Assembly: GCA_963662625.1 (NCBI GenBank)
Contig: OY759726.1
Coordinates: forward strand, 160,001-224,000
Direction of reading: 5' to 3'
Length of the DNA: 64,000 bases
From: Nitrosopumilus sp.
Lineage (GTDB): Archaea > Thermoproteota > Nitrososphaeria > Nitrososphaerales > Nitrosopumilaceae
Part shown: positions 1 through 64,000 of the stretch, piece after piece
How positions within the stretch are numbered: position 1 is the first letter of the stretch
How the letters are laid out: the number at the start of each line of letters is the position of its first letter
Notes under the pieces: model-generated
What the model was told of the DNA's origin: nothing
Database searches by the model: none
Seen by the model: the letters and a program-made list of their open reading frames with translations, nothing else
Position numbers and translations under genes: made by a program

Positions 1-669
1 ATAGTCGGCCATGACCTCCGCCTCCATCCCGGGGTCGTCGAGGCAGGAGGAGAACTCCCCCGCGTCAAGCCCCAGCGCCGCGGCGTAGCCAACCAGCGCC
101 GCCCTGAGCCCGGGTCCCGCCGACGCCCACTCGGCCTGCGCCTCGAACAGCGCGTCGTGGTACTCCCAGAACGCGCCCTGCTCGTCGGCGCACTCGGCGG
201 CGACGTGCGCGGGGAGCGCGGACTGGTGGAACCCGAGCGGAAAGTCGCGGTACACGAAGGACGCCTTGCCGGTGTCGACGTACCTGGCCTCGATGAGGGG
301 GAGGGTCTCCTCGTAGAACCTCAGGCAGAACGGGCACTCAAAGTCGGAGAACTCGACGATGGTGACAGGGGCCCGGGGGTCGCCCTTGGCCGGGTCGTCG
401 TCGACCGACACCGAGTCCGGGCCGGCGTGGTCGGTTCCGTCCCAGGCCGCCCCGGGCGGCGCGGCATCGTGGGCCCCGGCACGTCCCCCCCCGCCGGCGC
501 CCCCATCACGGAACCCGTCGGGGAGGACGTACACCGGCGCCGGCTGCGCGCCGCCGTCCATGATGCCGCACGCGTGCGCCCCGGCCAGGAACGAGGCTGC
601 GGAGGCAAGCGCCACCACGGCCCAGACGAGCCTCGGGGAGCCCCGGCACCCGCACTTTTCCCCGCTCAT
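1..669 (-). CDS. DsbA-family thioredoxin-fold protein with N-terminal membrane anchor (3' end runs off window)
   Basis: Manual translation, frame absent from ORF track: DDDPAKGDPRAPVTIVEFSDFECPFC...YRDFPL..H..A..A..AAECADEQGAFWEYHDALF; ATG overlaps actin stop (ATGA). Confidence 0.9.
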   Translation of the reverse strand, partial: MSGEKCGCRGSPRLVWAVVALASAASFLAGAHACGIMDGGAQPAPVYVLPDGFRDGGAGGGGRAGAHDAAPPGAAWDGTDHAGPDSVSVDDDPAKGDPRAPVTIVEFSDFECPFCLRFYEETLPLIEARYVDTGKASFVYRDFPLGFHQSALPAHVAAECADEQGAFWEYHDALFEAQAEWASAGPGLRAALVGYAAALGLDAGEFSSCLDDPGMEAEVMADY

Positions 670-1688
670 TCCCCGCCGCCCCCGCGGCCTTCCCCGGCGC
701 CAGGCCGGCCGTCCCCCGCCGGGATCCCGCCGGCACTGCCGCCTGCCCCCTGCAGCCCGTCATCGGGGGCGCCGCCGACGCGTCCGCGGCCCCCTGGGGG
801 TGGGGCGCCCCCTCCTTCTTCCCCTCCCCCGCGCCGCGGGCCAGGGCCGGGGACCCTTCCCGGGTTCCTCGCCGCCAGCATCTCCAGGCCAAGCGCGTTC
901 GAGAACACGGGATCGTCGGGGACCGTTATCTCGGCGTCCATGATCCTCCCCATCGCCTCCCTGACCCCCGGGATCAGCGAGCCGCCACCCGCGAGGATTA
1001 TGGCGTCCCCGGCATGGTCCATCCTGGACGCCTCGTCGGCGACGTGCTCCGCCAGCAGCCTGGCCAGCTTGGCCACCATCCCGGGGTTCCCAGAAAACAG
1101 CGCCTCGTGGCCGACGTACGAGTCCCTCCCGCCGCCAAGCTGCGACGTCACGAACTCGCTTGCCTTCCTGATGGACCTCCCGTCGACCCTCCCGGGCCGG
1201 ATGGATATTATCTCAGTGGTGCCGTGGCCGATGTTCACGACCATCCCCTGCTTCATCCCGCAGTACACCAGGGTGCCGTACGCCTGGGGGAGTATCCGCA
1301 GGGTGGCGGGGCCAAGCCTCGAGGAGAACATCCTCTCCATCCTCTTCCTCTCGCCCCTGGCGTCGTAGGTGATCCCGACCGCCAGGTTGAGCGGCACGCC
1401 GGCGTCCCAGCCGACAGACTCCGCCGCCTTCATCGCCAGGGCCTCGTACCCACGGCCGTTGTGCGGCATCCCGTGCCTCACCGGCCTTATGAGTATGGCC
1501 CTGTCGCCGCCCCCCATCCGGATCGCCTCGGAACCTACGGCCTCGGCCAGCACGCTCTTCCCAGCCTCGTCCTCCACGGTCTTCCTCCCGTCGGAGTACA
1601 TGCAGGAATACAGCGAGGGGAACGACACCTTCCTCCCCCCGGACGCGACCTTGGTGAACCCGGTGCCGATGTCGATCCCCACGTCCAT
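666..1688 (-). CDS. ParM/StbA-like actin-fold ATPase
   Basis: GIDIGTGFTK phosphate-1, PQAYG, VNIGHGTTE phosphate-2, LAGGGS adenosine motif, NALG; TTAAATA box at 1709-1715 favours ATG 1688. Confidence 0.85.
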   Translation of the reverse strand: MDVGIDIGTGFTKVASGGRKVSFPSLYSCMYSDGRKTVEDEAGKSVLAEAVGSEAIRMGGGDRAILIRPVRHGMPHNGRGYEALAMKAAESVGWDAGVPLNLAVGITYDARGERKRMERMFSSRLGPATLRILPQAYGTLVYCGMKQGMVVNIGHGTTEIISIRPGRVDGRSIRKASEFVTSQLGGGRDSYVGHEALFSGNPGMVAKLARLLAEHVADEASRMDHAGDAIILAGGGSLIPGVREAMGRIMDAEITVPDDPVFSNALGLEMLAARNPGRVPGPGPRRGGGEEGGGAPPPGGRGRVGGAPDDGLQGAGGSAGGIPAGDGRPGAGEGRGGGGE

Positions 1689-1707
1689 GCCGACCACCAC
1701 CCAGTGA

Positions 1708-3033
1708 TTATTTAAGGAGGGGGGCCTCAATCCCACTCCCAGCGCGCCCGGACCCGGCCAGGACGTACCGGCCAGGGCCGCGCCCCCGCCCGTCCCGCTC
1801 CAGGATCCCGGCGTGCAGCAGGGCCTCGATGCACGCCCTCCCCACCCTCACGTTGCCGGCGTGGCGACTCTCGGCCGGCGGGGGGACGTCGCCATCCGAG
1901 AACCGCCCCCCCGGCACGGCCCCCAGGAACCTCCCCAGCAGCGATCGCCGGTCGCCCGGCCTGCCAAGGTCGACCCTGAACTGCCTGCCGGACGGGGTGA
2001 TGATGAAGCAGCAGAACCCCCCGGACTTCCCCCGGTAGTACGCGTGGAGGTCCGGCGGAGGCCTCCCCCACGCCCCGGGCCAGGTCACGAAGGCCAGCGC
2101 GTGGCCGCCTGGGACGTTGGCCGAAAGGTCGGCCTCCCAGGTGTCGAAGAACCCGGACTGGTCGTCGCGAGACCACGACTCCTTGTGGTACACCGGGATG
2201 AGGACGTCCGACAGCGACGGCACGCCCCCCACCCTGGAGCGGGACTCGGAGACGTACTCCTTCCTGACGTCGAACCCGAGGTACCCCCTCCCCAGCGCCC
2301 TGGCGACCCTGGGCACCTGCCCGCTGCCGCACATGGGATCCATCACCATGTCGCCCTTCCCGCTGAACAGCGTGACCAGGCGGAACGGGATCTGCTCCGG
2401 GAAGGGACAGGGGTGGGAGACCGTCCCGGGCGGCACAGGGGCCACGTTCCACACGGAGTTTGCCACCTCCCTCTTCACCACGCGGTTGAGCGGGATCCTC
2501 CCGGACCTGCTCCTCCCCCCCTTCCCCTTCTGCAGCACCAGTATGTGCTCGTGCATCAGGTTGGCGCGAAAGTACCCTGGGTACGGGTTCTGGATGAACG
2601 AGCCGGCGCGGTTCCTGGAGCCGTGCCCTGTCCCCCCGACCTTGTTCCATATTATGGAGTCGCGCAGCACCCACCCGCCGTCCTCCTCGCCGCTCACCAG
2701 CCTGGCCAGCAGCATGGATGGGAGGGGGACGACCCTGCCGTCGGCGACCTCGTCGCCAACCACTATGCAGCACCTCCCGCCGGGCCTCGTGGCCCTGAAC
2801 ACCTGGGAGAACACCTCCTCCATGTCGTCCAGCCAGGACCCGGTGGTGGCCTTGCCGGCGCCCCTGTACCATCCCCCTCTCCCGGAGGCGTGGGCGTCAT
2901 AGTCTATGGCGTTGCGGTATGGCGGCGACGTGACGGTCAGGGCCACGGATCCGGGTCTGACCAGCCCGGAAAGGTCCCTGGCGTCGGCGCGGCGGATGGA
3001 GCCGCCTGGCCCCCGGCCCGGGGCGGCCGTCAC
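1708..3033 (-). CDS. Site-specific amino (N4-C/N6-A) DNA methyltransferase, beta class, with C-terminal extension
   Basis: VTSPPY catalytic motif before HPCPFP and DPMCGSG SAM-binding motif. Confidence 0.9.
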   Translation of the reverse strand: MTAAPGRGPGGSIRRADARDLSGLVRPGSVALTVTSPPYRNAIDYDAHASGRGGWYRGAGKATTGSWLDDMEEVFSQVFRATRPGGRCCIVVGDEVADGRVVPLPSMLLARLVSGEEDGGWVLRDSIIWNKVGGTGHGSRNRAGSFIQNPYPGYFRANLMHEHILVLQKGKGGRSRSGRIPLNRVVKREVANSVWNVAPVPPGTVSHPCPFPEQIPFRLVTLFSGKGDMVMDPMCGSGQVPRVARALGRGYLGFDVRKEYVSESRSRVGGVPSLSDVLIPVYHKESWSRDDQSGFFDTWEADLSANVPGGHALAFVTWPGAWGRPPPDLHAYYRGKSGGFCCFIITPSGRQFRVDLGRPGDRRSLLGRFLGAVPGGRFSDGDVPPPAESRHAGNVRVGRACIEALLHAGILERDGRGRGPGRYVLAGSGRAGSGIEAPLLK

Positions 3034-4463
3034 TGGCAGCGGCCTCCCCAGCGGGCCCGTGCCAGATCAAGCCGGCGCTCGTAGAGCGCTATCACGAGGT
3101 CGACGTCCCCCCCTATGGCGGAATCCCAGTCTATGGCGCGCAGGGCCCCATCGAGCGTGAGCATCCTGGGGGTCCTCCCCCCGATCCCGCGGATCATGGA
3201 GATCTCCTCCCCGGGGTCGCCGCCCGCGGAGGCGAGCTTCCCGCCATCGGCCAGCAGCACCACCATGTCGGCGCCGTCCCGTCGGACCGTGAACCACTCC
3301 CCAGGCATGATGGGCTTCCACGCGTCCGGGCCGGCCACGTAAAGCACCTCCGCCCCGCTGAACGTGAAGTGGCGGTTGGGCCTGGCGCGGACGCCAAGAT
3401 CCCCGTCGCGGGACGCCATCACCACGCAGTGCGCCACCCCGCTGACGGCCGCCTTCTTCACGGCATCCTCCACGAGGAAGCGGATGGACTCCACGCAGTC
3501 CAGTATCGCCGGTTCCCCCTCCGCGTAGTCCAGGACCGGGACGCCCCCATTCCCGGGGGACAGCCTGGCGACTCGCCCGCAGTCCGGGCACCTCGCCTTC
3601 CTGCCATGGGCGCCGCCCAACGGCCACGCGCAGTCCCCCCACGAGTGGTGGACGCGCACGCAGTCGGGCGTGGGCGCCACCACGTCCACCCTGATCTCCA
3701 GGCTGGGGAGCCCCTTCCCCTTCCAGCCGGGTTCCGGCTCGACGTACAACCCATCATCCGCCCGGCGGCCCCCGCGGGGGCCCTCCACGCTGCCGGGATC
3801 GTCCACCCCAGTTTCAAAGTCGCCGCCCATGGGGCCGTACATCACCGCCCTGAACCCCCCGGCGCCGTGGTCCATCTTCATGATCTCCCCCAGGCACGCC
3901 AGCCTGGCGCGCTCCTGGTCGCCGCCGTACACCCTGAATGGGTCGCATCCCTCGTCGAACTCCACGACGTACATCCCCATCGGTTCCATGGGGGAATGGA
4001 ATGGGGCGAACGCGCCGTGGGGAAGGCTGCCTCCCCCCTCCTTCACGCCAAGGCCCGCCGCCCCCGGCGACTTCCCGCCGGAGTCGGGCTTTGGGCTGCA
4101 GCCCGCCCCCTTCCCCGCGGGGCCCCCGGACTTGCGCGGCCTGCCCCTCCTCCTTTTGGCGCCGCCGGCCGGCCCTTGGCCAGGCACCTGCGACTCGCGC
4201 GGCCCTTCCCCCCCGGGCGCGCCCCCGGCCACGGCCGGGATCCCGCACACCTGCCCGGATCCGTCACGCGCCAGTTCGGCGCCCTCGGGCACCATCGAGT
4301 CCAGCGTGACGGCGTAGGACATCCCGCCGTGCCTCACGATCACCGCCGCCACGTCGTCCGCCGCGAACCCGTCAGGGAGGAGGCTCCTGGCCTTCGCCGC
4401 CTTCCCAGGCTTGGGGATCTCGCCCCACTCCAGCTTCCCTCTGTACTTTGCCAACCGTCCCAT
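3030..4463 (-). CDS. Hypothetical protein with AT-hook-like RRGRPRK and CPDC knuckle
   Basis: Start re-set to MGRLAKY (TATA-like TTTTATA at 4488-4494); stop overlaps MTase start. Confidence 0.6.
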   Translation of the reverse strand: MGRLAKYRGKLEWGEIPKPGKAAKARSLLPDGFAADDVAAVIVRHGGMSYAVTLDSMVPEGAELARDGSGQVCGIPAVAGGAPGGEGPRESQVPGQGPAGGAKRRRGRPRKSGGPAGKGAGCSPKPDSGGKSPGAAGLGVKEGGGSLPHGAFAPFHSPMEPMGMYVVEFDEGCDPFRVYGGDQERARLACLGEIMKMDHGAGGFRAVMYGPMGGDFETGVDDPGSVEGPRGGRRADDGLYVEPEPGWKGKGLPSLEIRVDVVAPTPDCVRVHHSWGDCAWPLGGAHGRKARCPDCGRVARLSPGNGGVPVLDYAEGEPAILDCVESIRFLVEDAVKKAAVSGVAHCVVMASRDGDLGVRARPNRHFTFSGAEVLYVAGPDAWKPIMPGEWFTVRRDGADMVVLLADGGKLASAGGDPGEEISMIRGIGGRTPRMLTLDGALRAIDWDSAIGGDVDLVIALYERRLDLARARWGGRCQ

Positions 4464-4589
4464 CCTGCCCACAAGACCGCCGCCACTATAAAAGCCCGGG
4501 GCGCCGCGCGAGGCGGACCCGGCCGCGGCATGCCGCGGGGTCCGGGATCCCCGGGCCGGCCCTTTAATTCCCGCGCCATGCTTCGCTGC

Positions 4590-6233
4590 ATGGGCGGGGG
4601 GATCACCGCCGCGGGGGCGGCGTACGACAGGTGCATGGCCGGCAGGTCCGGCATCCTGCTCAACGCCGGCAACGTGGCGATGTCGCACGAGTCCCCATAC
4701 TCCCTCTACTGCACGCTCTACGGCGACGAGTCAAGGAGGGATCCGCCTGACCCGTTCCTGCGGGCGCTGGCCGGCCGCGGGATGGAGCACGAGTCGGAGG
4801 TGCTGGAGGCCATCCATCCCGGGCGCCGCCGGGCGGCATACTCCACACTGAAGGAGGGCTTCATGATGGCACTGGAATCCATGGCGGGCGGCTCCACGGC
4901 CATATCCAACCCCCCGATCTTCCACGTCCCATCGTCAATGTACGGCAAGCCAGACCTCCTGGAGAGGGAGGAGGGCGGGTCGGAGTTGGGCGGCCACCAT
5001 TATGCCGTCACGGAGATCAAGGTGGCGAGGAAGGTGGCCGGGGCGCACGTCCTGCAGGCGGCGTTCTACACCATGCTGATCGGGCGGGTCCAGGGCAGGA
5101 TCCCGGACTCGTTCTCCATAGTCAACGGGGACGGGGAGAAGACGGGGTACAGCTACGCGGAACACGAGGGGGACCTGGCCGACGCGCTGGACGTGGCATT
5201 CGTGATCCGGGACGGGGGCGTCCCCCCGGCCATATACGGCGCCGGGGTCCCGCCGTGGACCAGGCTCTGCAACGAGGCGGCGGCCGAGGCCAGGGACGTG
5301 TCCATGATACCTGGCGTGGGGAGGAAGAGGAGGGACGCCATGGTCGCCGCCGGGTTCCGGACCGTCGAGGACGTGGCGGCGTCCTCCAGGGAGGGGCTGC
5401 GGCCGGTCAGGGGAGTCGGCGCGTCCACGTCCGGGGCGTACCTCGCCTCGGCCAGGGCGCTGGCGTCGGGGAACGCCGTGAGGCGCGCCCCGACGGCGCC
5501 CCTCCCGGACAGGGGGACCGAGATGTTCCTCGACCTCGAGGGCATCAACCCCCTGCTGGGGGACGACATCACGGACTACCTGATAGGGGTGCTGGTCCGC
5601 CGCGGCGGCAGGGAGGAGTACCTCCCGTTCGTGGCGGAGGACGGCGACGAGTGGGCGATGCTCCGCCATTTCCTGGACTGGCTGGGGACGCAGGACGACT
5701 ACGTCATCTACCACTGGCACCACTACGAGAGGACGCACCTGGCCAAGCTCATGGACACCCACGGGCGCGTCGAGCCCGGCCTGACGGACGCCGGGACGAT
5801 GGTCGACCTGTCCAGGGTGGCGACGGACGCGTTCGCCTTCCCCACCTGCCGCAACAGCATAAAGGACGTGGCCAGGTGGATGGGGTTCTCGTGGCGCCAC
5901 GAGGGGGTGGGGGCGCTGTCTGCCATAACGGTATACCAGCGGTACAGGGAGGATCCAGAGGCCAACAGGGAGGCCATGGGGATGGTGATCGACTACAACG
6001 AGGACGACTGCGCGGCCACCAGGGTGGTGAGGGACTGGCTGGCGTCACAGGAACCGCCCGCCCCGGCCCGCCATGGCCACGGGCGCCCGCCTCCCGGCGC
6101 CGGCCCGGAAGCCGGCGACCCCGGTCCCACAGGCCGGCGGGGTCACCATGGCAGGAGGCCGGGGAACAGCACGGCGACGGCCAGCGCGCCGGCCAGCCCC
6201 AGCGCCAGGAAGAATGCCAGTGGCATGGCGTAG
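4590..6233 (+). CDS. TM0106-family RecB-like PD-(D/E)xK nuclease with HhH and RNase H-like domains
   Basis: GKPDLL...EIK, QAAFY, IPGVG and VRGVG HhH, FLDLEG, YHWHHYE, YNEDDC; TTTAAT box at 4563-4568. Confidence 0.85.
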   Translation: MGGGITAAGAAYDRCMAGRSGILLNAGNVAMSHESPYSLYCTLYGDESRRDPPDPFLRALAGRGMEHESEVLEAIHPGRRRAAYSTLKEGFMMALESMAGGSTAISNPPIFHVPSSMYGKPDLLEREEGGSELGGHHYAVTEIKVARKVAGAHVLQAAFYTMLIGRVQGRIPDSFSIVNGDGEKTGYSYAEHEGDLADALDVAFVIRDGGVPPAIYGAGVPPWTRLCNEAAAEARDVSMIPGVGRKRRDAMVAAGFRTVEDVAASSREGLRPVRGVGASTSGAYLASARALASGNAVRRAPTAPLPDRGTEMFLDLEGINPLLGDDITDYLIGVLVRRGGREEYLPFVAEDGDEWAMLRHFLDWLGTQDDYVIYHWHHYERTHLAKLMDTHGRVEPGLTDAGTMVDLSRVATDAFAFPTCRNSIKDVARWMGFSWRHEGVGALSAITVYQRYREDPEANREAMGMVIDYNEDDCAATRVVRDWLASQEPPAPARHGHGRPPPGAGPEAGDPGPTGRRGHHGRRPGNSTATASAPASPSARKNASGMA

Positions 6234-6847: not shown

Positions 6848-7909
6848 TCAGGAGTCTATTATCTGGGATATGAGCACCATCTTCTTCTTGGATATGCGCT
6901 TCTTGCTCAGTACGATGGCGTCCCCGGTATCCCCCCTGCCGACGTGGTAGGTGTTGATGACCGGGGATAGGTCGAGCCCCAAAAAGTCAGCGTCCCCGTC
7001 GGAGAGGCCGTAGATCACCCTGCCGTCCACGTCGGTGGCCGCCACGTTGGAGCCGGTGTCGGTCATCTTCTTTATGGTGCCGTTCTTCAGGCTGATCAGG
7101 TAGTCGTTGCCGCATTCGCACCTGTACTTCACGGAGTCCGTCACGGACCTGACCTCGGTCCCGATGTCCCTGGAGCCGCCGTCGACGGTGACCCTCACCT
7201 CGTCCCCGCCTCCCCCGTCCGGCTCCCCGGCGGCGCCCTTCCTCCCCTTCTCCGGGATCTTCACCGTGTCCCCGGCGCCGCCCTTCCTGTACTTGGCGAA
7301 TATGGACCTGGCCACCCTGTCCCCGGCGTAGCCGATCTTCCCCTCCATCGTGGAGTACTTTACCAGGTCGTTGACCGCGTCATACTGCCTGCCCTTGCTG
7401 AGCTTGGAGAGCGGGTGGATTATCTGCACCATGGATGGGACCTCCGTCTTCTTCTTGGCCAGCAGCCCGACGAACCCGTCGAGCTTCCTCTCGGCCCTGG
7501 AGTCCAGGTCGACCTCCGCCAGGAAGACGTACTCGGAGGGGATGTACCCGGTGTCCCCCCCGCCCTCCACCACGTCCCTCACGACCCTCATCAGCCTGGT
7601 CGGGTGGTACGTCTTGGTGCGGGAGTTGAGCATGTGCAGCATCACGACCTTCTCCTCGGAGTCGGCCTCCTCCACCACGCAGTCGAGGCTGTCCGCGCCG
7701 CACTCCCTCGCCGCCGCCACGGTCTCGATGTTCCCGATCGCGTAGAGCCTGCCCCCGCGGGACGCGAGGACGGGGACCGGGTACCTCGACCCGTCCCTTA
7801 TCAGCGCGGCGACGTGGGACACGGAGGCGTCGACCACCACGGTGACGTTGCACGGGGCGTCCTCTATGTCGGACACCCTGACCTTCTGCACGTTCTCCAG
7901 GCCGCTCAT
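6848..7909 (-). CDS. ParB/Srx-like N-terminal domain protein with C-terminal CxC knuckle
   Basis: KVRVSDI...PVPVLASRGGRLYAIGNIETVAAARECG..LDCVV resembles the ParB N-domain; ATGA overlap with TFB-like stop. Confidence 0.55.
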   Translation of the reverse strand: MSGLENVQKVRVSDIEDAPCNVTVVVDASVSHVAALIRDGSRYPVPVLASRGGRLYAIGNIETVAAARECGADSLDCVVEEADSEEKVVMLHMLNSRTKTYHPTRLMRVVRDVVEGGGDTGYIPSEYVFLAEVDLDSRAERKLDGFVGLLAKKKTEVPSMVQIIHPLSKLSKGRQYDAVNDLVKYSTMEGKIGYAGDRVARSIFAKYRKGGAGDTVKIPEKGRKGAAGEPDGGGGDEVRVTVDGGSRDIGTEVRSVTDSVKYRCECGNDYLISLKNGTIKKMTDTGSNVAATDVDGRVIYGLSDGDADFLGLDLSPVINTYHVGRGDTGDAIVLSKKRISKKKMVLISQIIDS

Positions 7910-8625
7910 TCCGCCACCCCGAACGCCTCGCAGACGGCCGCCCTGGCCCTGCTGGGGTAGCTCCCCGTGGTGTAGACGTCGTTGTACAGCGCCCAGGCCA
8001 GCCTCTCCATCTCGGAATAGTCGCCCTTGAGGTACTCCCTGCCCTCCAGCACCGACATTATCGCCGCGCGGAAGTTGTACACCATGTCGTTGTCGTGCGG
8101 GGTCTCGACGTCCATCATCTTGTAGAGCATCTTGGTCATGTCCGGGAAGTGGGCCTTGCGGAACTCCCCGCGGACGACCGCTATGGCCTCCTTCCCCGTG
8201 ATCGGCACCCCGTGGACCTTGGCGGACTTGTACAGCGCCCAGGCGGCCACGAACGCGTACTGCCTGGAGCCGGTCGTCTCCCTGCCGCGCCGGAAGAGCC
8301 TGAACGCGTACTCCGACTCGTTGCGGTTGAGCCCGAGCTTCTGGGCGCTGTTGGAGAACTTCCTCAGCCAGTCCATCTCCTTCACGCTCACCCTGTCGCG
8401 CATCTCCGAGCGGAGGTACGCCCTCAGGCCGTCGGTTTCCATGGCCTTGGGCAGGAGGTTCTTGGAGCCTGTCGCGTGCCTCTCGAACAGGTTGGTCCTC
8501 GAGCTGCCCTCGTATGGCGCCTCGACGGTCCCCTCCTGCATCACCATCCCGCACGCGGAGCAGACCACCTCGCCGTTGGTCTCGATCCTGTTCCCGTGCC
8601 CGCACGCTATGGCAGCCATCCTCAT
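7906..8625 (-). CDS. tfb: Transcription factor B (TFIIB)-like protein, short and divergent
   Basis: Zn ribbon CGH...GEVVCSACGMV followed by cyclin-fold-like helices (SAQKLGL...AFRLFRR; AAWALYKSAKVHGVPIT). Confidence 0.75.
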   Translation of the reverse strand: MRMAAIACGHGNRIETNGEVVCSACGMVMQEGTVEAPYEGSSRTNLFERHATGSKNLLPKAMETDGLRAYLRSEMRDRVSVKEMDWLRKFSNSAQKLGLNRNESEYAFRLFRRGRETTGSRQYAFVAAWALYKSAKVHGVPITGKEAIAVVRGEFRKAHFPDMTKMLYKMMDVETPHDNDMVYNFRAAIMSVLEGREYLKGDYSEMERLAWALYNDVYTTGSYPSRARAAVCEAFGVAE

Positions 8626-21328: not shown

Positions 21329-21335
21329 GGGCGCC

Positions 21336-24976: not shown

Positions 24977-25006
24977 GGGAGGAACAACCGGCGCGGCTTA
25001 AAAGGG

Positions 25007-34919: not shown

Positions 34920-34963
34920 CATTGGCGTTAAGTGTAAAACCAGTTTTACATTTAACGCCAATG
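34920..34963. repeat. 44-bp near-perfect inverted repeat in AT-rich intergenic island
   Basis: CATTGGCGTTAAGTGTAAAAC-CA-GTTTTACATTTAACGCCAATG; 21-bp arms with one mismatch. Confidence 0.9.
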
Positions 34964-35109
34964 CGATATTCGTTTTTCATTCCTCCCCAAAAACTGCCGG
35001 AAGGACTGTTCCGATACGTTGTGGTTACGGCGCTTCCCATATAAAGTTTGAAATGCGGCATCTTCGGGCCCGGCGGCCGCGCTTTTATCCCCAGCGGAGA
35101 CTCCATGGC

Positions 35110-55937: not shown

Positions 55938-56473
55938 GTCCGTGTCCCCCTGTGGATCATGTCGAGGGTGGGAGCGAATTCCCCGATCCTGCCGGCGTCG
56001 GCGATCCCGTAGAATATCCCCCCGGCCTTCCTCAGGAGCCCGCCGTCCACCAGGGAGCCGAAGGCCACGCTGAAGTCCTTGTCGCTGACCACCTTCCCGT
56101 ACGTCATGGCCAGCTCCTCGCTGGACCTGGCGTACGTCCCCCCGTTCATGGCGTGCGCGCGGGCAAGCGATAGTATCATCAGGGCCAGCGGGGTGATCCC
56201 CAGGCCAGCGGCGGCGCGCATCGCCAGGCCTGAGGAGGTGGCCCACAGGGAGTCGCCGTCCCTGGCCAGCAGCCCCTCCCGCACCGCGATGCACAGCTTC
56301 TCGTCGAAGAGGTTCCCGGCCCCGCCGCGGATCTCCTCCCTGAGCCGCCTCGCGTCGACCACGCCGTCGCCGACCCCCTCCAGGATCCTGGACAGCAGCG
56401 AGCCCCGCCTGGCCCTCCTCCTGTGCCAGTCCGGGGGGAGCCTCCCCCTGTCTGCCGGGGCGGGCGTCCTCAT
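55934..56473 (-). CDS. Putative tandem winged-helix DNA-binding protein
   Basis: Two wHTH-like endings (VREGLLARDGD; LVDGGLLRKAGG); ATGA overlap. Confidence 0.5.
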   Translation of the reverse strand: MRTPAPADRGRLPPDWHRRRARRGSLLSRILEGVGDGVVDARRLREEIRGGAGNLFDEKLCIAVREGLLARDGDSLWATSSGLAMRAAAGLGITPLALMILSLARAHAMNGGTYARSSEELAMTYGKVVSDKDFSVAFGSLVDGGLLRKAGGIFYGIADAGRIGEFAPTLDMIHRGTRT

Positions 56474-57225
56474 CCCCCCCACCGGATCTCCCCGCAGCCC
56501 GGGGGGTGGTACGAGACCTCGGCGGCGGCCATGTCTATCAGGTACCACCTGCCGTCCCTGCCGCGGGCAAAGTCGACGCTCCATGCCGCGCCGCCGACCC
56601 TCCGGGCCACCTCGCGGGCCATGCCGGCGATCGTCGCCCCGGCGGCGGCCACGGCGCGGTTCTGCCACTCCAGTATCCCCCGCCACCCCGGGTCCATCCC
56701 GCGGGCCAGCCGGCCGCCCCTCTCGGCCCACGCCGCGACGGCGTCTGGGACCCAGTACGGGTGGACGCACCGCGGCTCCCCGCCGGAGACGAAGGCCCTG
56801 GCCTCGACGGATATCGGGAGGCGGTCGAAGGCGCAGAACCCGGCGTCCAGGTCCAGCCACTTCCTGAGCACGACGGCGGAGTCCACCAGGTCGAAGCACG
56901 CGTTCAGGTCCAGGATCTCCATCAGGTGCGGCAGCAGCGCCCTCCTGGACGGCAGCCTGCAGGTGCGGCGGAACATGTGCTTCTGGGAGGAGTGGTCCGT
57001 CCGGAGGAACACCGGGTACGGTTCCAGATCCTCGAGCGCCGCGTACAGCTCCTCCGCGTGGGAGCCTAGGGCCCTCTCGCCGTCCATGACCCCCGACAGC
57101 GTGCGGTATGGGATCTCCACGATCCGGGTCTCCGGCTGCGGGATGTCCAGGTCCCTCACCAGCGGGTGCCAGTGCAGCATGCTGCTCCTGACGTAGTGCC
57201 CGGCGAGATCGGAGAGGTCAGACAA
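56470..57225 (-). CDS. ATP-grasp fold protein (R2K-like)
   Basis: YPVFLRTDHSSQKH, EARAFV, HPYW, WSVDFA...WYLIDM. Confidence 0.6.
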   Translation of the reverse strand: MSDLSDLAGHYVRSSMLHWHPLVRDLDIPQPETRIVEIPYRTLSGVMDGERALGSHAEELYAALEDLEPYPVFLRTDHSSQKHMFRRTCRLPSRRALLPHLMEILDLNACFDLVDSAVVLRKWLDLDAGFCAFDRLPISVEARAFVSGGEPRCVHPYWVPDAVAAWAERGGRLARGMDPGWRGILEWQNRAVAAAGATIAGMAREVARRVGGAAWSVDFARGRDGRWYLIDMAAAEVSYHPPGCGEIRWGG

Positions 57226-57376
57226 CGTCGAACCCCACCGGGTTGGGGTGCCCCCTCGGGCACTCCGCGGACACCTGCGTGACCGTGATCCCCCCCTGCC
57301 TCGGGCTTATCGGGGCGGTGGCGGCGCCTATGGGGGACCCGCACGCGTAGCACCTGCGCGGCCTCGTCCTGATCAC
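57218..57376 (-). CDS. 52-aa Zn-ribbon micro-protein (CYAC...CPRGH)
   Basis: GTGA overlap with priL stop. Confidence 0.5.
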   Translation of the reverse strand: MIRTRPRRCYACGSPIGAATAPISPRQGGITVTQVSAECPRGHPNPVGFDVV

Positions 57377-58308
57377 CGGCCGCCCCCCCTCCGGTACTGC
57401 AGCGGGTTCCGGATGCCGCGGCAGCTGTGGTCCCGGCGGCACAGCCCCATGCCCTCCAGCTTCGCGCATCCCTGGGGGGAGTAGCCGGCGCCGTCGATGT
57501 GGGCCACCTGGGCCGCCGTCACCCGCTCCGAGTAGTCCGGGGCGCCGGAGAACAGGGAGGCGACCTCCCCCCTGGAGCGGCCGGCGCGGAGCATGTAGGA
57601 CGCCACCAGGAACCTCCCGGAGTGGTTCAGGTTCTCCCCCCTGGACATCGCGGCCGCGGCGTGTTCCACGCAGGGGGGGATCCCGTCGCTGCCGGCGGCC
57701 GGCCTCCTGGCCGGCCTGGGCGCCATGGCCGCCACCTCCGACGCCGGGCCGGATATGTCGCCCTCCCACCCGCGGTCCAGCCTGACCCCCCGTATCGCCG
57801 ACATCACGGCGTCCGTCAGGTCCGCCCGGAGGAGCCTCCTCAAGTCGGCGCCGGCGAGCCTGACCATCCCGGAATCGACGTCGCGGTTCACCAGCTTCCA
57901 CGCCGCCTCCCCTATCCGGACGGAACGCCGGAGGTACGCCGGGACCGGCACCAGGTACGTCCCGCCCGACGCGGCCGCCCCGATCATCTCCGCGGCGTCT
58001 GCCATCCTCCCGGCCAGGGCGGCCTCGGCGCGCCTCGATTCGCCGAGGGCGAACCTCCTGGAGAGCGGCTCGCTGCCCGCGGCGGAGAGGAGCACCAGGG
58101 ACGCGGCGTAAAGGACGGCCGACTTTGGGTAGATCCTCCCACCCACCACGTCCTGGCCCTCCCTGGACGGCCTGCCGGCCACGCAGGAGGAGATGTTCTC
58201 CACGGCGCCCCTCAGGATCCCCGGGTCGCGCAGCGCCGCCCCCATGTCGAACGAGCCCGCCTTCAGCGACTCGATCGCGCCGAGCGCCGGGTACCTCGAG
58301 GCGTCCAT
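57373..58308 (-). CDS. priL: Archaeal DNA primase large subunit
   Basis: WKLVNR, PPCVEH, GENLNHSGRF, FSGAPDYSERVT, Y...C..L..LC....C..IRNPLQY Fe-S domain. Confidence 0.88.
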   Translation of the reverse strand: MDASRYPALGAIESLKAGSFDMGAALRDPGILRGAVENISSCVAGRPSREGQDVVGGRIYPKSAVLYAASLVLLSAAGSEPLSRRFALGESRRAEAALAGRMADAAEMIGAAASGGTYLVPVPAYLRRSVRIGEAAWKLVNRDVDSGMVRLAGADLRRLLRADLTDAVMSAIRGVRLDRGWEGDISGPASEVAAMAPRPARRPAAGSDGIPPCVEHAAAAMSRGENLNHSGRFLVASYMLRAGRSRGEVASLFSGAPDYSERVTAAQVAHIDGAGYSPQGCAKLEGMGLCRRDHSCRGIRNPLQYRRGGGR

Positions 58309-58309: not shown

Positions 58310-59866
58310 TCAGGCCAGCGCGTCGGTGTAGGAGCGCGGCACGTAGCGCTTCATCGTCCTCAGCAGGTCCCGGATCCCAGAATCGATGACGTAGGTCGGG
58401 GCCGAGTCCCCCTCCTCCCTGACCGACCTGCCGCACCCCTGGAGGAACCTCGTCAGGGCGGCGTACCTGTACCACACCTGGCTCGCCGCCGCCTTGCGCC
58501 TCACCCTGGGGTCGGACATGGACGGGTAGGGGACCTTGTAGATCACCTGCCACTCCGACAGCCTCCCCCTCAGGTCCACGCCGCTCCAAAGCGAGGGGGA
58601 CAGCAGCACCGTCGGCTCCTCGGACTCGACGTGCCTGGCAAGCTGCTCCTCCCTGGTGGAGTCCCCCCGGGCGAACACGGGGACGAGCCTGTCTGGTTCC
58701 TCGGCGTTCCTGATTATCTCCACGCACCTGGCCACCGAGGTGGCCAGGATCAGCCCCTTCTGCCCCGAGTGCCTCCTCATTACCTCGTTCACCCTCCCGC
58801 AGGCGGCCAGGTGCTCCGAGGGGGTGGTCCTCTCGTTGATCCTGGCGACGTCCAGCATGTGGATCCTCCTGTTTTCGGGGGGGAAGGGGGAGTCGTGGAC
58901 CTCGACGAAGGCCGCGTCGCGCACGTCGATCCCCATGGAGTGGCAGAACGGCTCGGGGGAGATCGTCGCGGACATGAAGAGCTGGCGCGGCGCGTCAAAG
59001 TACGTCCGCGCCACCCCGGACACGTCGGCCATGGTGACCGTCAGCCTCCTCGAGCCGGAGCCGTACCCCGTGACCAAGTTGTCCGGCCTGGCCTCGGCCT
59101 CCCTGATCAGGAGGCGGCACTTTTCGGCGACGAAGGCGTAATAGTTGACGTTGGAGCCGTCCCCCCTGGCGCGGCGCGCAAAGTCGGCGTGTATCGCCCA
59201 GAGCGCGGCGCGGACGGAGTCGACGTCCGCCCTCGGGCCGACTTCGGCGCCGCACTCGTCGAGCTGCTCCCTGTCCACGGTGTGGGTCACGTGCGCCACC
59301 AGGGCGTCCTCGATCTCGTGCGCCTCGTCGCAGACCAGCGTGTCCTTCCTGGCCTTCCCGTGGCGGGCGAAGTGGAAGAAGGAGGCGTAGTTGTACACGG
59401 CGGCCTCGGACAGCATGGCGGTGTACTTTGCGGTGTAGTAGAGGCACGAGTCCGCCGGGCCGCTGACCGTCCCCCCGGGAAGGACGGTGAACTCCGACGG
59501 CATCGGCTTGCGCGTGCATGTCATCTTCTTCCCGCCCTCCCTCCAGGTGCACCTGCCCTGGCTGCATGGCGCGCCCTCGGCCGGCCCGCCGTCGAGTTCC
59601 AGGCACCTGTAGTTTGACTTGCCCATCGCCACCGGCAGGCCCGCGAAGTCGCGGGCGTACTGGTGCTGGAGGAGGCGCTGCCTCGTGACTATCCCCCCTC
59701 CCCCGTGGTGGTTGAGGAACGTCATGGCCACGTGGCTCTTGCCGACCCCGGTGGGGGCGCAGAGTATGACGTGGCGGTACCCGGACTTTAGCGCCTCGGA
59801 GATCCTGGAGATTATCTCGGCCTGCTGGGGGCGCGGCGTGGCGCCGCGGGGGAACGACGCTAGCAT
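58310..59866 (-). CDS. DinG/XPD/Rad3-like Fe-S SF2 helicase
   Basis: PRPQQ, APTGVGKS, GKSNYRC, DEAH, MSAT, GVDL, KVPYP, QGCGRSVR. Confidence 0.9.
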   Translation of the reverse strand: MLASFPRGATPRPQQAEIISRISEALKSGYRHVILCAPTGVGKSHVAMTFLNHHGGGGIVTRQRLLQHQYARDFAGLPVAMGKSNYRCLELDGGPAEGAPCSQGRCTWREGGKKMTCTRKPMPSEFTVLPGGTVSGPADSCLYYTAKYTAMLSEAAVYNYASFFHFARHGKARKDTLVCDEAHEIEDALVAHVTHTVDREQLDECGAEVGPRADVDSVRAALWAIHADFARRARGDGSNVNYYAFVAEKCRLLIREAEARPDNLVTGYGSGSRRLTVTMADVSGVARTYFDAPRQLFMSATISPEPFCHSMGIDVRDAAFVEVHDSPFPPENRRIHMLDVARINERTTPSEHLAACGRVNEVMRRHSGQKGLILATSVARCVEIIRNAEEPDRLVPVFARGDSTREEQLARHVESEEPTVLLSPSLWSGVDLRGRLSEWQVIYKVPYPSMSDPRVRRKAAASQVWYRYAALTRFLQGCGRSVREEGDSAPTYVIDSGIRDLLRTMKRYVPRSYTDALA

Positions 59867-62232
59867 GGGAAGAACGCCCCCATGGACTCCTGCCTGGTGC
59901 CGTCGGCGATGTCCCTGGCCGAGATCCCCATGGCGGGGAGGATCTGGTCCAGCGTGGACGCCAGGAAGTCGACGTACTTTTTGCGGTCCACCGCCGACGC
60001 CGACGCCATCTCGACGGGGACCGCGCCGCCCCTCGTCTTCACGTAGGCCACGCTGTCGCCGGCGCCGAGCCTCGTCCCGGCCCCGGCCAGGGCGTTGGCG
60101 GCGCGGACGTGCTGGGGGAGGGCCTTGGAGTACTCGGCCGGGTCCCTTGACAGGTTCATCCGGAAGGCCAGCTGGTTGAGGGGTATGTCGCCGTCGCGCA
60201 GGACGCCGACGTCGGCCCTGACCTGGTCCCTTATCCTCCCCCTGGCGTCGTCCACCTTCCCGGGTTCCGTGATCCCCGCGAGCAGCGATATCACCCGGGA
60301 GAACGCGGCGGAGATGAACGGCGGGGTGTGGCTCTTCTTCCCGGTGAGCCCCTTGACGTCGGCCTTCCCGTCGGACTTGCGGATCCCGACGTAGTTCTTC
60401 TTCAGCCCGGACAGTATCATGTAGCGGTACTCGCGGTCCACCTCGAGTTCCACCCCGTCGCGGCGGCCCGCCTCCTCGATTACCCTCCCCTTCATGGCCT
60501 CGTCGGCGCCGCGGATGAACACGGAGTCCGTGTCGCCGTACAGCACGTCCACCCCGTTGGCGCGGCAGTATTCCACCAGCCCGGTGATGGCGCGCCTGCC
60601 GGACGCCGTGATGGAGTCGGCCACCGGGAGGTAATACAGGGGGAACGCCTCCATGGCCATCACCCCGTAGCTCGCGTTCATCAGGACCTTGATGGCCTGC
60701 GAGATGGTGTCGTACTGCCTCCCCTTTCCCCCCGGCAGCGACCCGTCCCTGGCCAGCCTCTTGTAGTACCCCACCCTGAGCTTCCTCAGGGCCCCTATCA
60801 GCACCGCCATCATCCCGTTCCGCCTGGAGCATGACCAGTATTCCGTCCCTGGGATCAGGTGCCCCCGGCACTCCGGGTGCGGGCAGCCGACCGTCTCCCA
60901 CGATATGTTGTTGCGCTCGATCAGCCCGGGGTACATGGACGCGAAGTCCAGCACTGTCACGTCCCAGTGCACCCCGGGCTCGGCGTCCAGGACCTTCCCG
61001 CCCTCGAAGCCCGCCCCGGGGGTGGCGTTGCGGGCCCTGCACTCGGACTCCCTCGGCACCAGCATCCCGTTGGCGCGCATGTGGCGGTGCATCATGGAGA
61101 GGATCCAGCGCGAGATCCCGGTCCTGGACAGCCTGTCGATGGGAAGGGACGTTATCCTCGCCAGGATGACCAGCAGCTGCATGACTATGCCCCCGTCGTA
61201 CGCCGACAGGCCGTACGTCATCGCCGCGTCGTGGTGGCAGTACCTCGCCAGGTCTGCCGGGGGCATCCTGGACGCCTCGGAGCCGGACCCGATCTTGGAC
61301 TGCCCGGTCATCGCGCTCGACACCGCGTCCAGCCCGTAGGTGTCGTACCTCCCGGAAAAGGCGTAGTTCTGCAGCGAGCGGTTCGAGAACACCCCGTAGA
61401 GGTCCACGTGGACCGGGCCGTCCACGAGGACCCTGTCGCCGGCGCGGCGGAAGAACCCCCCGTGGGCTATCCCGAGCCGCTCGGCGCGGTTGGCGAGGTA
61501 GGGGACGTCGAACCCGTCCCCGAAATAGCTCAGTATCACCGGGTAGGACCTCAGCACGGAGATGGCGTCGGAGATCATCTCCGACTCGCTCTCGTACCTC
61601 CTCACGGTCACCCCTCCCTCCTCGTAGGTCCCGGCGGGGGACGCCAGCACGAATGACTGCTCCATGTCGCCTGCCGAAAAGGCCACCGCGGTCACCCCGT
61701 GCCTCCCGGACGTGTCGACCCCCTCGGTCTCGATGTCGAACGCGCAGCGGCGGAACTCGGGCACTGGAGCGTCGAGCATGTCGGCCAGCCTCGATATCTC
61801 CATCCCCAGGCCCTCCGAGTCGGGGAGGGCGGAGTCGCCGATCCCGGCCAGCACCTCCGACAGCCTCTCCTGCATCCTGGCGGACTTGACGTGCGGGTGC
61901 GGCCCGGGGGGGCAGCCCGGGGGGCCAGGGACGTACCAGCACCCTGGGATGATCCCGTGGTCGTACAGGTACGACTCGGCGGGGTGGATCGAGCCCTCCC
62001 ACCCGTCGCGGTCGCCATCCTCCCGGCGGAACCTGCGCAAGGAGTCGGTGATCAGGTCCAGCCTCGGCTCGCCGCCGCCGTCCTCCACCAGGCCGTACGC
62101 CGCGTGCCTGCCGGCATCGTGGACCACAGTCCCGGAGTCGGAGTAGAATTTCAGCTTCGCGGCACCGTCCTCCACGTACGCCGAGAGGAGCAGCATCGGC
62201 CCCCCGGCGCCGTGGGGCCGGCCGTGCGTCAT
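59860..62232 (-). CDS. polB: Family B DNA polymerase (PolB1-like) with proofreading domain
   Basis: FDIETE, FDVPYL, YCHHDA exo motifs; DFASMYP, KVLMNASYG, YGDTDS, KKNY pol motifs; ETVGCPHPEC insert. Confidence 0.95.
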   Translation of the reverse strand: MTHGRPHGAGGPMLLLSAYVEDGAAKLKFYSDSGTVVHDAGRHAAYGLVEDGGGEPRLDLITDSLRRFRREDGDRDGWEGSIHPAESYLYDHGIIPGCWYVPGPPGCPPGPHPHVKSARMQERLSEVLAGIGDSALPDSEGLGMEISRLADMLDAPVPEFRRCAFDIETEGVDTSGRHGVTAVAFSAGDMEQSFVLASPAGTYEEGGVTVRRYESESEMISDAISVLRSYPVILSYFGDGFDVPYLANRAERLGIAHGGFFRRAGDRVLVDGPVHVDLYGVFSNRSLQNYAFSGRYDTYGLDAVSSAMTGQSKIGSGSEASRMPPADLARYCHHDAAMTYGLSAYDGGIVMQLLVILARITSLPIDRLSRTGISRWILSMMHRHMRANGMLVPRESECRARNATPGAGFEGGKVLDAEPGVHWDVTVLDFASMYPGLIERNNISWETVGCPHPECRGHLIPGTEYWSCSRRNGMMAVLIGALRKLRVGYYKRLARDGSLPGGKGRQYDTISQAIKVLMNASYGVMAMEAFPLYYLPVADSITASGRRAITGLVEYCRANGVDVLYGDTDSVFIRGADEAMKGRVIEEAGRRDGVELEVDREYRYMILSGLKKNYVGIRKSDGKADVKGLTGKKSHTPPFISAAFSRVISLLAGITEPGKVDDARGRIRDQVRADVGVLRDGDIPLNQLAFRMNLSRDPAEYSKALPQHVRAANALAGAGTRLGAGDSVAYVKTRGGAVPVEMASASAVDRKKYVDFLASTLDQILPAMGISARDIADGTRQESMGAFFPC

Positions 62233-63115: not shown

Positions 63116-63369
63116 GTAAGCCCCTCGATGATCCCGGTGATGGCGGCTATCTTCAGCCTGCACCCCCGCAGGTCCGAGGACAGCTCGTCCTGCCATCCCT
63201 TGAGCTCCATCAGGATTGTCGCCATCCTCGCGTCCCGCGCCGATCCTGCCATGGAATCCAGCCTCCTCGAGCCGCTTTCCAGGGCGGCGGCGGCCCGGTC
63301 GATTATCTCCAGCACCTCCCGCATGGTCTCCAGGTCCTTCCCCCGCGGCGTGGCGGCGCCGGGGTTCAC
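63112..63369 (-). CDS. Small coiled-coil protein
   Basis: GTGA overlap; heptad-like helices. Confidence 0.55.
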   Translation of the reverse strand: MNPGAATPRGKDLETMREVLEIIDRAAAALESGSRRLDSMAGSARDARMATILMELKGWQDELSSDLRGCRLKIAAITGIIEGLT

Positions 63370-63998
63370 CGGCCAGCCCTCCCGAGCATCCTCGCGGCCA
63401 TCCTGGCCCGCTGGTGCGCCGCGACGGCGCGGCGGAACCCCGGTTCCATGGGGGCGAACCACCCGGCGGAGTCCCGGTGCGTCGCGTACTCCAACAGCAT
63501 CCTGAGCGCGCCCGCCGGCCTGGATGGGAAGGCGGCCGCGCATCTGGCCAGGGCGAAGGGGGGGTAGTACCCGATGCAGCGCATGGCTCTCCCGTAGCCG
63601 CGGAACCCGTGGGACGAGCCCGCCGGCCTGAGGTGCCTCCCCCGCGCCCCGTCCACCACCTCCACCCTGCGCCCCTCCAGGATCGCGTGGTACAGTGGGG
63701 CGGACTCCCATGCGCAGCTGTGGTTGTAATGCCCCAGCCGCCCGGCAAACCACCCCTGGTCGACCATCCTGCCGCTGCCGCGGGGGAACCCGTGGCTCTT
63801 CCCCGCGGGGGGATCGCCATCCAGCCGCCCCCCGGCGATCACGGCGCCGGCGGCGACGGCCCCCAGCAGGAGCCGGGCGTAATCCCACTCCAGCACGGTG
63901 TCGCCGCCAAGGTGGAGGATGCAGTCGTGCGCCCCGTCCAGGCACCTGTTGATTAGGCCTGGGAGCCTCCTGTAGTCCCTCTCCGGGTGGCTCTCCAT
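63366..63998 (-). CDS. Possible GT2-like glycosyltransferase (probably 5'-truncated by window)
   Basis: LINRCL...ILHLGGDTVLEWDY resembles the GT-A DxD region; GSGRM. Confidence 0.4.
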   Translation of the reverse strand: MESHPERDYRRLPGLINRCLDGAHDCILHLGGDTVLEWDYARLLLGAVAAGAVIAGGRLDGDPPAGKSHGFPRGSGRMVDQGWFAGRLGHYNHSCAWESAPLYHAILEGRRVEVVDGARGRHLRPAGSSHGFRGYGRAMRCIGYYPPFALARCAAAFPSRPAGALRMLLEYATHRDSAGWFAPMEPGFRRAVAAHQRARMAARMLGRAGR

Positions 63999-64000
63999 CC

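Follow-up and report, generated by a model that had tools for sequence, protein, structure and literature searches.

The 64,000-nucleotide stretch analysed here (hereafter the window) covers bases 160,001-224,000 of a 1,858,698-bp contig that holds the whole genome in one piece, and it very probably represents the middle of a 114.6-kb integrative-conjugative element (ICE) inserted in the chromosome of an ammonia-oxidising archaeon. Archaeal AmoA is encoded in the same genome (completeness 99.51%, contamination 0.32%), and the host is therefore an ammonia-oxidising thaumarchaeon. While elements of this kind are already known, this one forms a branch of thaumarchaeal ICEs that has been little described so far, and it belongs to a conserved sub-lineage carrying a replication block and its own TATA-binding protein (TBP). 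What is new beyond published ICEs is the type of replication module, which unites a cell-type family B DNA polymerase (PolB), the primase large subunit PriL, an XPD-like helicase and a D5-like helicase, as well as the presence of an element-specific TBP.

First, the window lies within a 114,566-bp insertion at genome positions 119,937-234,502 (-40,063 to 74,502 in window coordinates), of which it covers the central and right part, the element exceeding it on both sides. The insertion point is located between a GT2 gene ending at 119,923 and an SRPBCC gene starting at 234,503. By searching the flanks at the DNA level, we found these two genes adjacent to each other, as an empty site, in 4/4 relatives where both flanks were found, with gaps of 41 bp (G003), 153 bp (G008), 554 bp (G005) and 155 bp (G002, of the same genus as the host). 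In the same searches, genome positions 224,001-234,450 shared no DNA with the relatives. The window is free of ordinary housekeeping operons, as had been noted from its letters, and the whole stretch lies inside the insertion that all four relatives lack; no tRNA genes were found in these 64 kb.

Once the empty sites had fixed the positions of the junctions, an identical 10-mer in the same orientation was located at both of them, as expressed in an attachment-site-like (att-like) direct repeat. This 10-mer occurs three times in 1.86 Mb, twice at the junctions and never within the element. Exact repeats of at least 14 bp between the right junction and 20-232 kb were limited to 15-18-mers at chance level. 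The rightmost gene of the element (genome 233,147-234,454) encodes a tyrosine recombinase. It has no Pfam match and matches the NCBIfam XerA model weakly (5.4e-7), and a profile built from the gene and 19 homologues retrieves XerA structures (5hxy at 3.1e-10 and another at 3.2e-8), while a single-sequence phmmer search against the PDB returned noise only. Residues R160, R287, H310 and Y318 are invariant and correspond to the catalytic R, R, H and Y. Homologues are found in 65/121 genomes of the host's family, often in several copies, as expected for the integrase of an element (the 121-genome tallies for integrase and PolB include three unpublished genomes, G099, G084 and G100, on which no specific claim rests). 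Although this recombinase family is present, Pfam PF00589 (Phage_integrase) has zero matches across the genome, and island finders based on PF00589 would overlook a common thaumarchaeal integrase family.

The original prediction had seen in the window a large, partly autonomous, mini-chromosome-like conjugative replicon. Similarly, a free plasmid or mini-chromosome could have been mis-joined to the chromosome by the assembler, and such an origin would suit an element that, like haloarchaeal megaplasmids, has genes of its own for these three tasks: replication, partition and transcription. We nevertheless regard it as very improbable. Among four public runs of one study, which were kept as contigs and may include the source sample, two runs gave independent contigs that cross the right junction. 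The first (X1, 58,243 nt) does so with 0 differences and at a depth of 25.9, equal to that of the neighbouring chromosome-side contigs (21.9-28.8), and the second (X2) is 3,501 nt long. Moreover, the direct repeats sit exactly where synteny with the four relatives breaks, the integrase gene stands at the end of the element, and a counterpart in another genus (G024) lies inside a 2.16-Mb contig. The chromosome being a single contig, with its right junction bridged at equal depth, an att-like repeat and an integrase, the separate replicon gives way to an integrated element. Short "joints" in the runs, with sides of 21-29 letters, were set aside as likely repeats or other organisms.

Second, a VirB4/VirD4/pilus set that looks complete is present in the window (Table 1). 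Genes were called by codon usage, after training on the long open reading frames of the genome. This gave 60 genes in the window (49 on the minus strand), all of which were scanned against Pfam and ten also against NCBIfam; the whole element holds 116 called genes (100 on the minus strand) in tight co-oriented operons, with a coding density of 87%. In addition to its Pfam matches, the VirD4-like ATPase has weak NCBIfam matches to TraD, CedD and VirD4-like models. The larger pilin-like protein, with its Cys-rich repeats, has weak matches to ephrin-receptor-like repeats below cut-off, and the candidate segregation motor, an actin-fold ATPase, also matches ALP_N below cut-off (22.6 bits). Altogether, the type IV secretion system-like and Tad-like pilus genes, PolB, PriL, the Fe-S helicase, TBP, TFB, Alba, the actin-like ATPase and the ParB-like protein that had been recognised from the letters of the window are all present, and the transfer genes and amoA bear out the description of a large conjugative-type mobile element of a high-GC (guanine + cytosine) thaumarchaeon.

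That the insertion might be a provirus rather than a conjugative element is suggested by its right end, where the integrase, small regulators, a ParB-methylase and the D5-like helicase resemble the early region of a temperate virus. However, besides the presence of this transfer set, capsid, portal and terminase families are absent from the Pfam scan of 100 proteins (PHROGs were not searched), and the element PolB has no close viral relative, with at most 26% identity among 50,697 phage records. A viral origin is thus scarcely plausible.

Third, the window contains an operon in which the gene of a short TFB lies directly upstream of that of a ParB-like protein, with a 4-bp overlap. The two assignments had been among the weaker calls and they hold, on both profile and structural matches. 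A profile of 13 TFB homologues retrieves TFIIB chains from the PDB with an E value of 1.9e-8 (first cyclin repeat) and the TFIIB zinc ribbon with 0.015; in Foldseek, the AlphaFold2 (AF2) model, with a predicted local distance difference test (pLDDT) score of 81.2, comes closest to TFIIB chains, at an E value of only 2.7e-3. For the ParB-like protein, a profile of 13 proteins finds sulfiredoxin (9.3e-5) and ParB (1.9e-3), and the well-modelled N-terminal 210 residues of the AF2 model match ParB, Noc, KorB and pNOB8 ParB-N in Foldseek (E values of 7e-6 to 5e-4). An Atlas feature search also pointed to TFIIB and ParB_N, as leads only. ParB-like homologues occur in 14/121 family genomes (13 besides the host), and, in genomes other than the host's, at least 10 of these loci have a TFB-like gene immediately upstream of it. 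An operon with TFIIB immediately upstream of ParB has been called specific to thaumarchaeal ICEs (Krupovic et al. 2019, PMC6563490). This operon, in combination with VirB4, VirD4, VirB6, TadC and pilins, is the known signature of such ICEs (PMC6563490), and the "undescribed class" that had been envisaged was therefore overstated.

The replication block is composed of a D5-like superfamily 3 (SF3) helicase, located to the right of the window (D5_N, DUF5906 and Pox_D5 matches), the cell-type PolB, the XPD-like helicase and PriL. The host has its own PolB gene at genome 46,726-49,278, and the element PolB shares 44% identity with its product; with the host PolBs listed for 115/121 family genomes, the identity is 40-45%. 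Against the NCBIfam archaeal DNA polymerase I model NF004417, the element PolB scores 635.6 bits for a cut-off of 780, i.e. below equivalog level, and its match starts at model position 142, so that the N-terminal part is lacking; the Exo I/II motifs and motifs A, B and C are intact. In a quick maximum-likelihood tree (44 rows, with five other families of the order as the root), it groups with the extra copies of G024 and G048 (support 99) and of G087 (97). These form a long-branch clade inside the family ingroup. The element PolB itself has a branch of 2.2-6.3 changes per site, and it stays inside the ingroup when other long rows are removed (6.25 changes per site). It is not orthologous with the single chromosomal copy of the host lineage. 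Another long-branch PolB, of 816 amino acids, is encoded at positions 12,266-14,368 of a 68,160-bp contig (G103:C3), the rest of which shares nothing with the element; this contig may be a different plasmid or element.

The element PriL is 36% identical to the host PriL, whose gene adjoins that of host PriS, and it keeps the four Fe-S cysteines. The element PriLs of the host genome (G000), G024, G048 and G087 form one clade (support 99), with the same inner topology as in the PolB tree. We modelled the complex of host PriS with element PriL and obtained a score of 0.88, in favour of binding, the best of 3 controls scoring 0.00; the mark used for this score is reached by 58/80 solved complexes and by 2/110 mismatched pairs. 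At least 93% of the contacts are common to the runs, the partners have pLDDT values of at least 81, and within the PriL interface (residues 121-148) some columns of alignment A4 do not vary between the PriLs of element and host. Primase heterodimers having already been solved, the model would speak for a kept interface likeness and not for binding itself. The XPD-type helicase is 36.5% identical to two host paralogues, and its four-Cys cluster aligns with that of the host XPD.

The element-type TBP is also set apart from those of the host. Two canonical TBPs are encoded elsewhere in the genome, and host TBPs are almost invariant, while those of the elements in G000, G024 and G048 group together (support 100), their common stem measuring 8.4 changes per site. 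A sample of 401 genomes from across the phylum yielded the element-type TBP in four, all of them from the host's family. Two further Alba genes also exist in the host genome. The G024 element has no Alba counterpart, and Alba is therefore cargo of the copy of the element described here. PolB, PriL, the XPD helicase, TBP and Alba are thus all extra copies beside host genes; long-branch extra copies in the PolB, PriL and TBP trees were the outcome set beforehand as support for the original prediction, and this is what the trees gave.

Related elements indicate how far this organisation is conserved. VirB4 homologues are found in 35/121 family genomes, 12 of them at 42-54% identity. A parallel to the whole arrangement is found in G024, a genome of another genus with ~37% GC, where a ~195-kb insertion (C1:1,337.7-1,532.6 kb; loci L057-L062 and L084-L088) lies between homologues of genes that are neighbours at 1,231-1,244 kb in G000. 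It holds homologues of at least 33 element genes. Its transfer module keeps the gene order of PilB-like ATPase, VirB4 (53% identity), VirD4 (58%), TadC, both VirB6-like proteins, the six conserved genes and the pilin-like proteins, the remaining identities being given in Table 1. Counterparts also exist for TBP (38%), TFB (36%), the ParB-like protein (30%), the actin-fold ATPase (50%), the D5 helicase (39%), PolB (41%), XPD (43%) and PriL (35%), as well as for the ParB-methylase and several left-arm genes, and the G024 element carries its own PriS. The D5 helicase/PolB/XPD/PriL block is shared by G048 (fragmented) and G087. Hence, the syntenic elements that had been anticipated in other genomes do exist, as an element in G024 and as the replication block in the other two. 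Several transposase-like genes also lie in the G024 insertion, as do homologues of the genes found at 36-42 kb in G000, where they border a low-GC island.

In G002, from the host's genus, VirB4, the TFB-ParB operon and the element-type TBP are on one contig, and PolB is single. The replication block appears as a variable addition to a core of TBP, TFB, ParB and transfer genes, which leaves room for a composite origin: an ICE with the transfer genes, TFB-ParB and TBP could have been fused to, or nested with, an integrase-bearing replicative element made up of the early region, the ParB-methylase, the D5 helicase, PolB, XPD and PriL. This would agree with the gene content of G002, with the position of the G024 replication block, at the far end and in a different order, with transposase-like genes between it and the transfer block, and with G087, in which the replication block is not beside a close VirB4. 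A precedent has been described in NitEve-E7, which is piggy-backing within NitEve-E6 (PMC6563490). On the other hand, the insertion has a single recombinase gene and a single att pair, the core of which is not repeated inside it, and both blocks lie inside one insertion in G000 and in G024, so that they now form one unit even if they were originally fused. We consider a composite improbable as an account of what the window represents.

Several observations weigh against the reading of the insertion as an ICE that moves and replicates with its own genes. The VirD4 and VirB6 assignments come from weak matches and from conservation. The 100 Pfam-scanned proteins gave no match to a relaxase, a prepilin peptidase or VirB3, about 1/4 of the 116 element genes lying outside the scans and small membrane proteins being easily missed; likewise, jackhmmer found no PriS in the element. 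One methylase is truncated, and the att-like repeat is just 10 bp long. Since G002 has no second PolB, the blocks for replication and for transfer are not bound to each other, and the placement of the element PolB in the trees is unsure, the trees being quick, the branches long and the composition skewed. No excised circle or empty-site molecule was seen in the run contigs, in which the right junction was examined and which miss rare forms. Finally, the element has the same GC content (66.3%) as the 60 kb on either side of it (67.1% and 66.8%), which fits long residence rather than recent arrival; the whole genome has 63.4% GC, the rest of the genome 63.2%, and the window 63-73% in 2-kb steps. 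Broad domains of 66-68% GC extend over genome ~40-300 kb and 1,580-1,858 kb, against ~63% elsewhere, and the element, with matching GC, is inside one of them.

Part of these points would agree with a settled and immobile remnant, that is an old ICE fixed in the lineage whose genes persist or have been recruited to other roles, such as the uptake of DNA or the building of surface structures: the GC match, the lack of a visible excision product, the relaxase, prepilin peptidase and PriS not found in the scans, and the truncated methylase. We consider this unlikely. Indeed, the empty site in G002 implies that the insertion is younger than the genus, the element is gene-dense, with tight co-oriented operons, the catalytic residues of the integrase, the motifs of PolB and the Fe-S cysteines are intact, and so is the att pair. 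An integrated ICE therefore stays the reading that we favour, and we infer that it excises and transfers and that it has some autonomy, in episomal replication and in its own transcription.

Two further leads concern possible promoters and sites. The pattern CCCTTAAA(A/T)(A/G)CGCCCGCC is found ~27 nt ahead of the start codon in four transfer operons (window 28526, 29811, 37491 and 50372, with a looser case at 40690). In its loose form it has 12 matches genome-wide, of which the element holds 5 for 0.7 expected, an enrichment that is post hoc and serves as a lead only, the pattern having been derived from the element's own upstream sequences and then counted. Conversely, the host-type box TTTAAATA occurs 43 times in the genome and 0 times in the element, for 2.7 expected. 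Such a promoter difference would fit a private TBP/TFB pair and proves nothing. A gene-free AT-rich stretch of the window (Table 1) contains a 21-nt hairpin at 34920-34963, an inverted repeat with 95% complementarity. Within the element, AT content over 200 bp peaks at genome 224,637 (38.5% GC). This site, in the gap between the GT2 and D5-like helicase genes (genome 224,220-224,996), is a candidate replication origin.

We can propose, as a possibility that we hold for doubtful, that the conjugative elements of a conserved lineage in ammonia-oxidising archaea, each more than 100 kb long, act as semi-autonomous mini-chromosomes once excised. They would bring a private initiation pair, formed by a diverged TBP and a short TFB and reading a distinct type of GC-flanked TTAAATA promoters on transfer operons, and a private replisome made of an SF3 helicase, a host-derived PolB, XPD and a PriL that borrows host PriS, both uncoupled from host control.

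For the integrated ICE that we favour, the most likely mode of action would be as follows. The recombinase would excise the element as a circle and the SF3 helicase would open the AT-rich site beside its own gene. The element PolB would then copy the DNA from a primer made by host PriS held by element PriL. The element TBP and TFB would direct the host RNA polymerase to the GC-flanked TTAAATA promoters of the element, and ParB and the actin-like ATPase would partition the circle. The pilus and the VirB4/VirD4/VirB6 channel would pass the circle to a recipient, perhaps as double-stranded DNA, a form of transfer that has been proposed for Sulfolobus plasmids (PMC6563490), and the methylases would protect the element DNA in the recipient.

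The features of the window and the cargo of the left arm are collected in Table 1.

Table 1. Features of the element in the window and in its left arm. Positions are window coordinates unless genome coordinates are indicated; G024 refers to identity with the homologue in that genome.
Feature	Position	Strand	Evidence
DsbA-like thioredoxin	1..669 (over window start)	-	Pfam Thioredoxin_4 88.9 bits
Actin-fold (MreB/ParM-like) ATPase, candidate segregation motor	666..1700	-	MreB_Mbl 29.4 bits, cut-off 27
N6/N4 DNA methyltransferase	1708..3033	-	Pfam N6_N4_Mtase 103.6 bits
Member of family with shared N-terminus	3030..4472	-	phmmer: six left-arm paralogues, E 1e-20 to 6e-23
RecB-like nuclease (TM0106 family) with HhH domain	4590..6233	+	NCBIfam TIGR03491 217.7 bits; Pfam RNase_H_2, HHH_5
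ParB-like protein, second gene of operon	6848..7909	-	no Pfam match; profile and AF2
Short TFB/TFIIB homologue (Zn ribbon and cyclin folds)	7906..8625	-	weak Zn ribbon in Pfam; profile and AF2
Conserved 789-aa protein	8725..11094	-	no Pfam, NCBIfam or PDB match; 46% in G024
Pilin-like protein with Cys-rich repeats	11046..13271	-	archaeal class III signal-like N-terminus, by eye only
VirD4/TraD-like coupling ATPase, 1185 aa, long C-terminal extension	14036..17593	-	TrwB_AAD_bind 30.4 bits, DUF87
TadC/T2SSF-like pilus platform protein	17596..19452	-	Pfam T2SSF 62.1 bits; 51% in G024
Six co-oriented conserved transfer-module genes	19436..28498	-	no Pfam match; G024 homologues in kept order, 29-41%
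Pilin-like protein	29094..29762	-	class III signal-like N-terminal motif, by eye only; 42% in G024
Alba chromatin protein, extra copy	29962..30255	-	Pfam Alba 31.6 bits
Element-type TBP	31538..32098	+	Pfam TBP 44.6 bits, first repeat only
PAPS-reductase-like gene	32163-32933	-	Pfam
C5 DNA methyltransferase	within 32163..34123	+	Pfam
AT-rich gene-free stretch, candidate origin of transfer (oriT) or regulatory site	34837..35037	.	44.5% GC
VirB4/TrbE-like ATPase	35586..37463	-	Pfam P-loop_TraG 59.2 bits; NCBIfam VirB4-like CD1110 123.9 bits
PilB/FlaI/TadA-type secretion ATPase (T2SSE)	37513..39018	+	Pfam T2SSE 102.6 bits; 65% in G024
VirB6-like paralogue	39319..40644	-	phmmer 1e-48 to the 48366-50345 gene; 40% in G024
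Holliday-junction-resolvase-like endonuclease	42363..42839	-	Pfam Endonuc_Holl 99.8 bits
C5 DNA methyltransferase	43081-44127	-	Pfam DNA_methylase 217.8 bits
N6 methyltransferase-like gene	45197-46408	+	N6_N4_Mtase 26.4 bits, at cut-off
VirB6/TrbL-like membrane protein	48366..50345	-	TrbL 17.5 bits, below cut-off; 47% in G024
Truncated C5 methyltransferase, 171 aa	51054..51569	-	DNA_methylase match limited to positions 15-109 of 324
ATP-grasp (R2K_3) protein in replication operon	56470..57180	-	Pfam 40 bits
PriL, primase large subunit, extra copy	57373..58308	-	Pfam 43.6 bits
XPD/Rad3-type Fe-S helicase, extra copy	58310..59866	-	Pfam Helicase_C_2 61.9 bits, ResIII, DEAD
Family B DNA polymerase, cellular (B1) type, extra copy	59860..62232	-	Pfam DNA_pol_B 137 bits
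GT2 glycosyltransferase	63366..64000 (over window end to genome 224,220)	-	Pfam Glycos_transf_2 40.8 bits
PstI-type restriction enzyme and Eco57I-like methylase, then HerA-like ATPase and weak NurA match	left arm, genome 151,514-157,592
Further C5 methylase, SNase-like protein, weak ArdC-like match, nucleoside 2-deoxyribosyltransferase	left arm

At least seven DNA methyltransferase genes (one of them truncated) and a restriction system of PstI type are present in the whole element. Beyond the right edge of the window, the remainder of the GT2 gene is followed by the D5-like SF3 helicase, a fusion of ParB_N with a methylase, small open reading frames and the integrase; few genes of the left arm (120-160 kb) have family matches. 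Phmmer searches of the PDB with a 715-aa protein and the 789-aa protein gave nothing usable. Seven genes, one in the window (3030-4472) and the others at genome 124,536-143,550, have a common N-terminus; six of them have near-identical 70-nt upstream sequences, and the shared part is also found in the elements of G024 and G087. A close paralogue of the PAPS-reductase-like gene (E 7e-110) lies at genome 703,208-703,972, in a bin (700-720 kb) of 55.6% GC that may be another island. Outside the element, a ~400-bp repeat just past a tRNA-Arg gene (L005:15958-16354, genome 239,958-240,354) has at least 8 further copies in the genome at 70-89% identity and weaker copies in G008; it looks like a miniature inverted-repeat transposable element.

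Conjugation in archaea outside Sulfolobales is known from gene content alone, and thaumarchaeal ICEs are themselves predicted. With the family of elements described here, abundant marine nitrifiers provide a concrete and conserved example of how a replicative polymerase of cellular type, a subunit of primase and a TBP were captured by an ICE, which has kept them on fast-evolving branches in genera whose GC content ranges from 37% to 68%. It raises the questions of whether an element's own TBP and TFB re-programme archaeal transcription initiation, whether a lone PriL hijacks host PriS, and how ammonia oxidisers come to share genes for defence and methylation through large islands.

Among known systems, the closest are the ten thaumarchaeal ICEs of Krupovic et al. 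2019 (PMC6563490), which have a median size of 64 kb and of which NCAV2-E1/E2, NitIsl-E3, NitEve-E6, NitGar-E3, NitVie-E3 and NitNCS1-E3 are named. They are termed putative there (PMC6563490). Like them, the present element is integrated in the chromosome and has a VirB4/VirD4 pair, VirB6, TadC, a FlaI/PilT-type ATPase, pilins and the TFIIB-ParB operon, together with methylase and restriction cargo, and in both a relaxase was not found (PMC6563490). It differs by its size, 114.6 kb, and by its insertion site, which adjoins a protein gene and not a tRNA gene (PMC6563490). The replication genes of the published ICEs vary, with Cdc6/Orc1, UvrD-like helicases, topoisomerase IA and primpol-SF3 helicase fusions, and the sole PolB among them, that of NitEve-E6, is casposon-like and unrelated to cellular polymerases (PMC6563490). 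In contrast, the PolB described here is of the cellular replicative type, and PriL, the XPD-like and D5-like SF3 helicases, an own TBP, Alba and the actin-fold ATPase are added. TBP, Alba, actin, XPD and chromatin are absent as words from the main text of that study, the supplements of which may list such genes (PMC6563490). In the literature searched we found no description of a thaumarchaeal ICE with a cellular-type PolB, PriL or TBP, although subscription papers and the same supplements could hold one.

The Sulfolobales conjugative plasmids (pNOB8, pKEF9 and the pING family) share with the element a VirB4/TrbE-like ATPase and the absence of a recognised relaxase, and the pNOB8-type ParB is among the fold matches of its ParB-like protein. 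They differ by their size, 25-41 kb from record lengths, and by the distance of their VirB4: the element protein is homologous over its full length (96%), at an identity of just 22-23%, to the VirB4-like proteins encoded by a Thermococcus plasmid and by conjugative plasmids of Sulfolobus, pNOB8 among them. The Sulfolobales plasmids are not known to carry a polymerase, a primase subunit, a TBP or a TFB-ParB operon. Haloarchaeal megaplasmids and minichromosomes, in another phylum and mainly extrachromosomal, have their own replication, partition and transcription genes. ThaMY3-E2 (98.3 kb) is likewise a large integrated thaumarchaeal element with host-like replication genes including PolB; compared by description only, it differs in being classed as cryptic and not as an ICE, and in having MCM where the present element has SF3 and XPD helicases (PMC6563490). 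Finally, the Borg and jumbo elements of Methanoperedens, also compared by description, resemble it as very large accessory DNA with extra replication and transcription-initiation genes, one jumbo element being reported as integrated; they belong to another phylum and are mainly extrachromosomal, whereas the element described here is integrated and carries a conjugation module (PMC13444090, PMC12660748).

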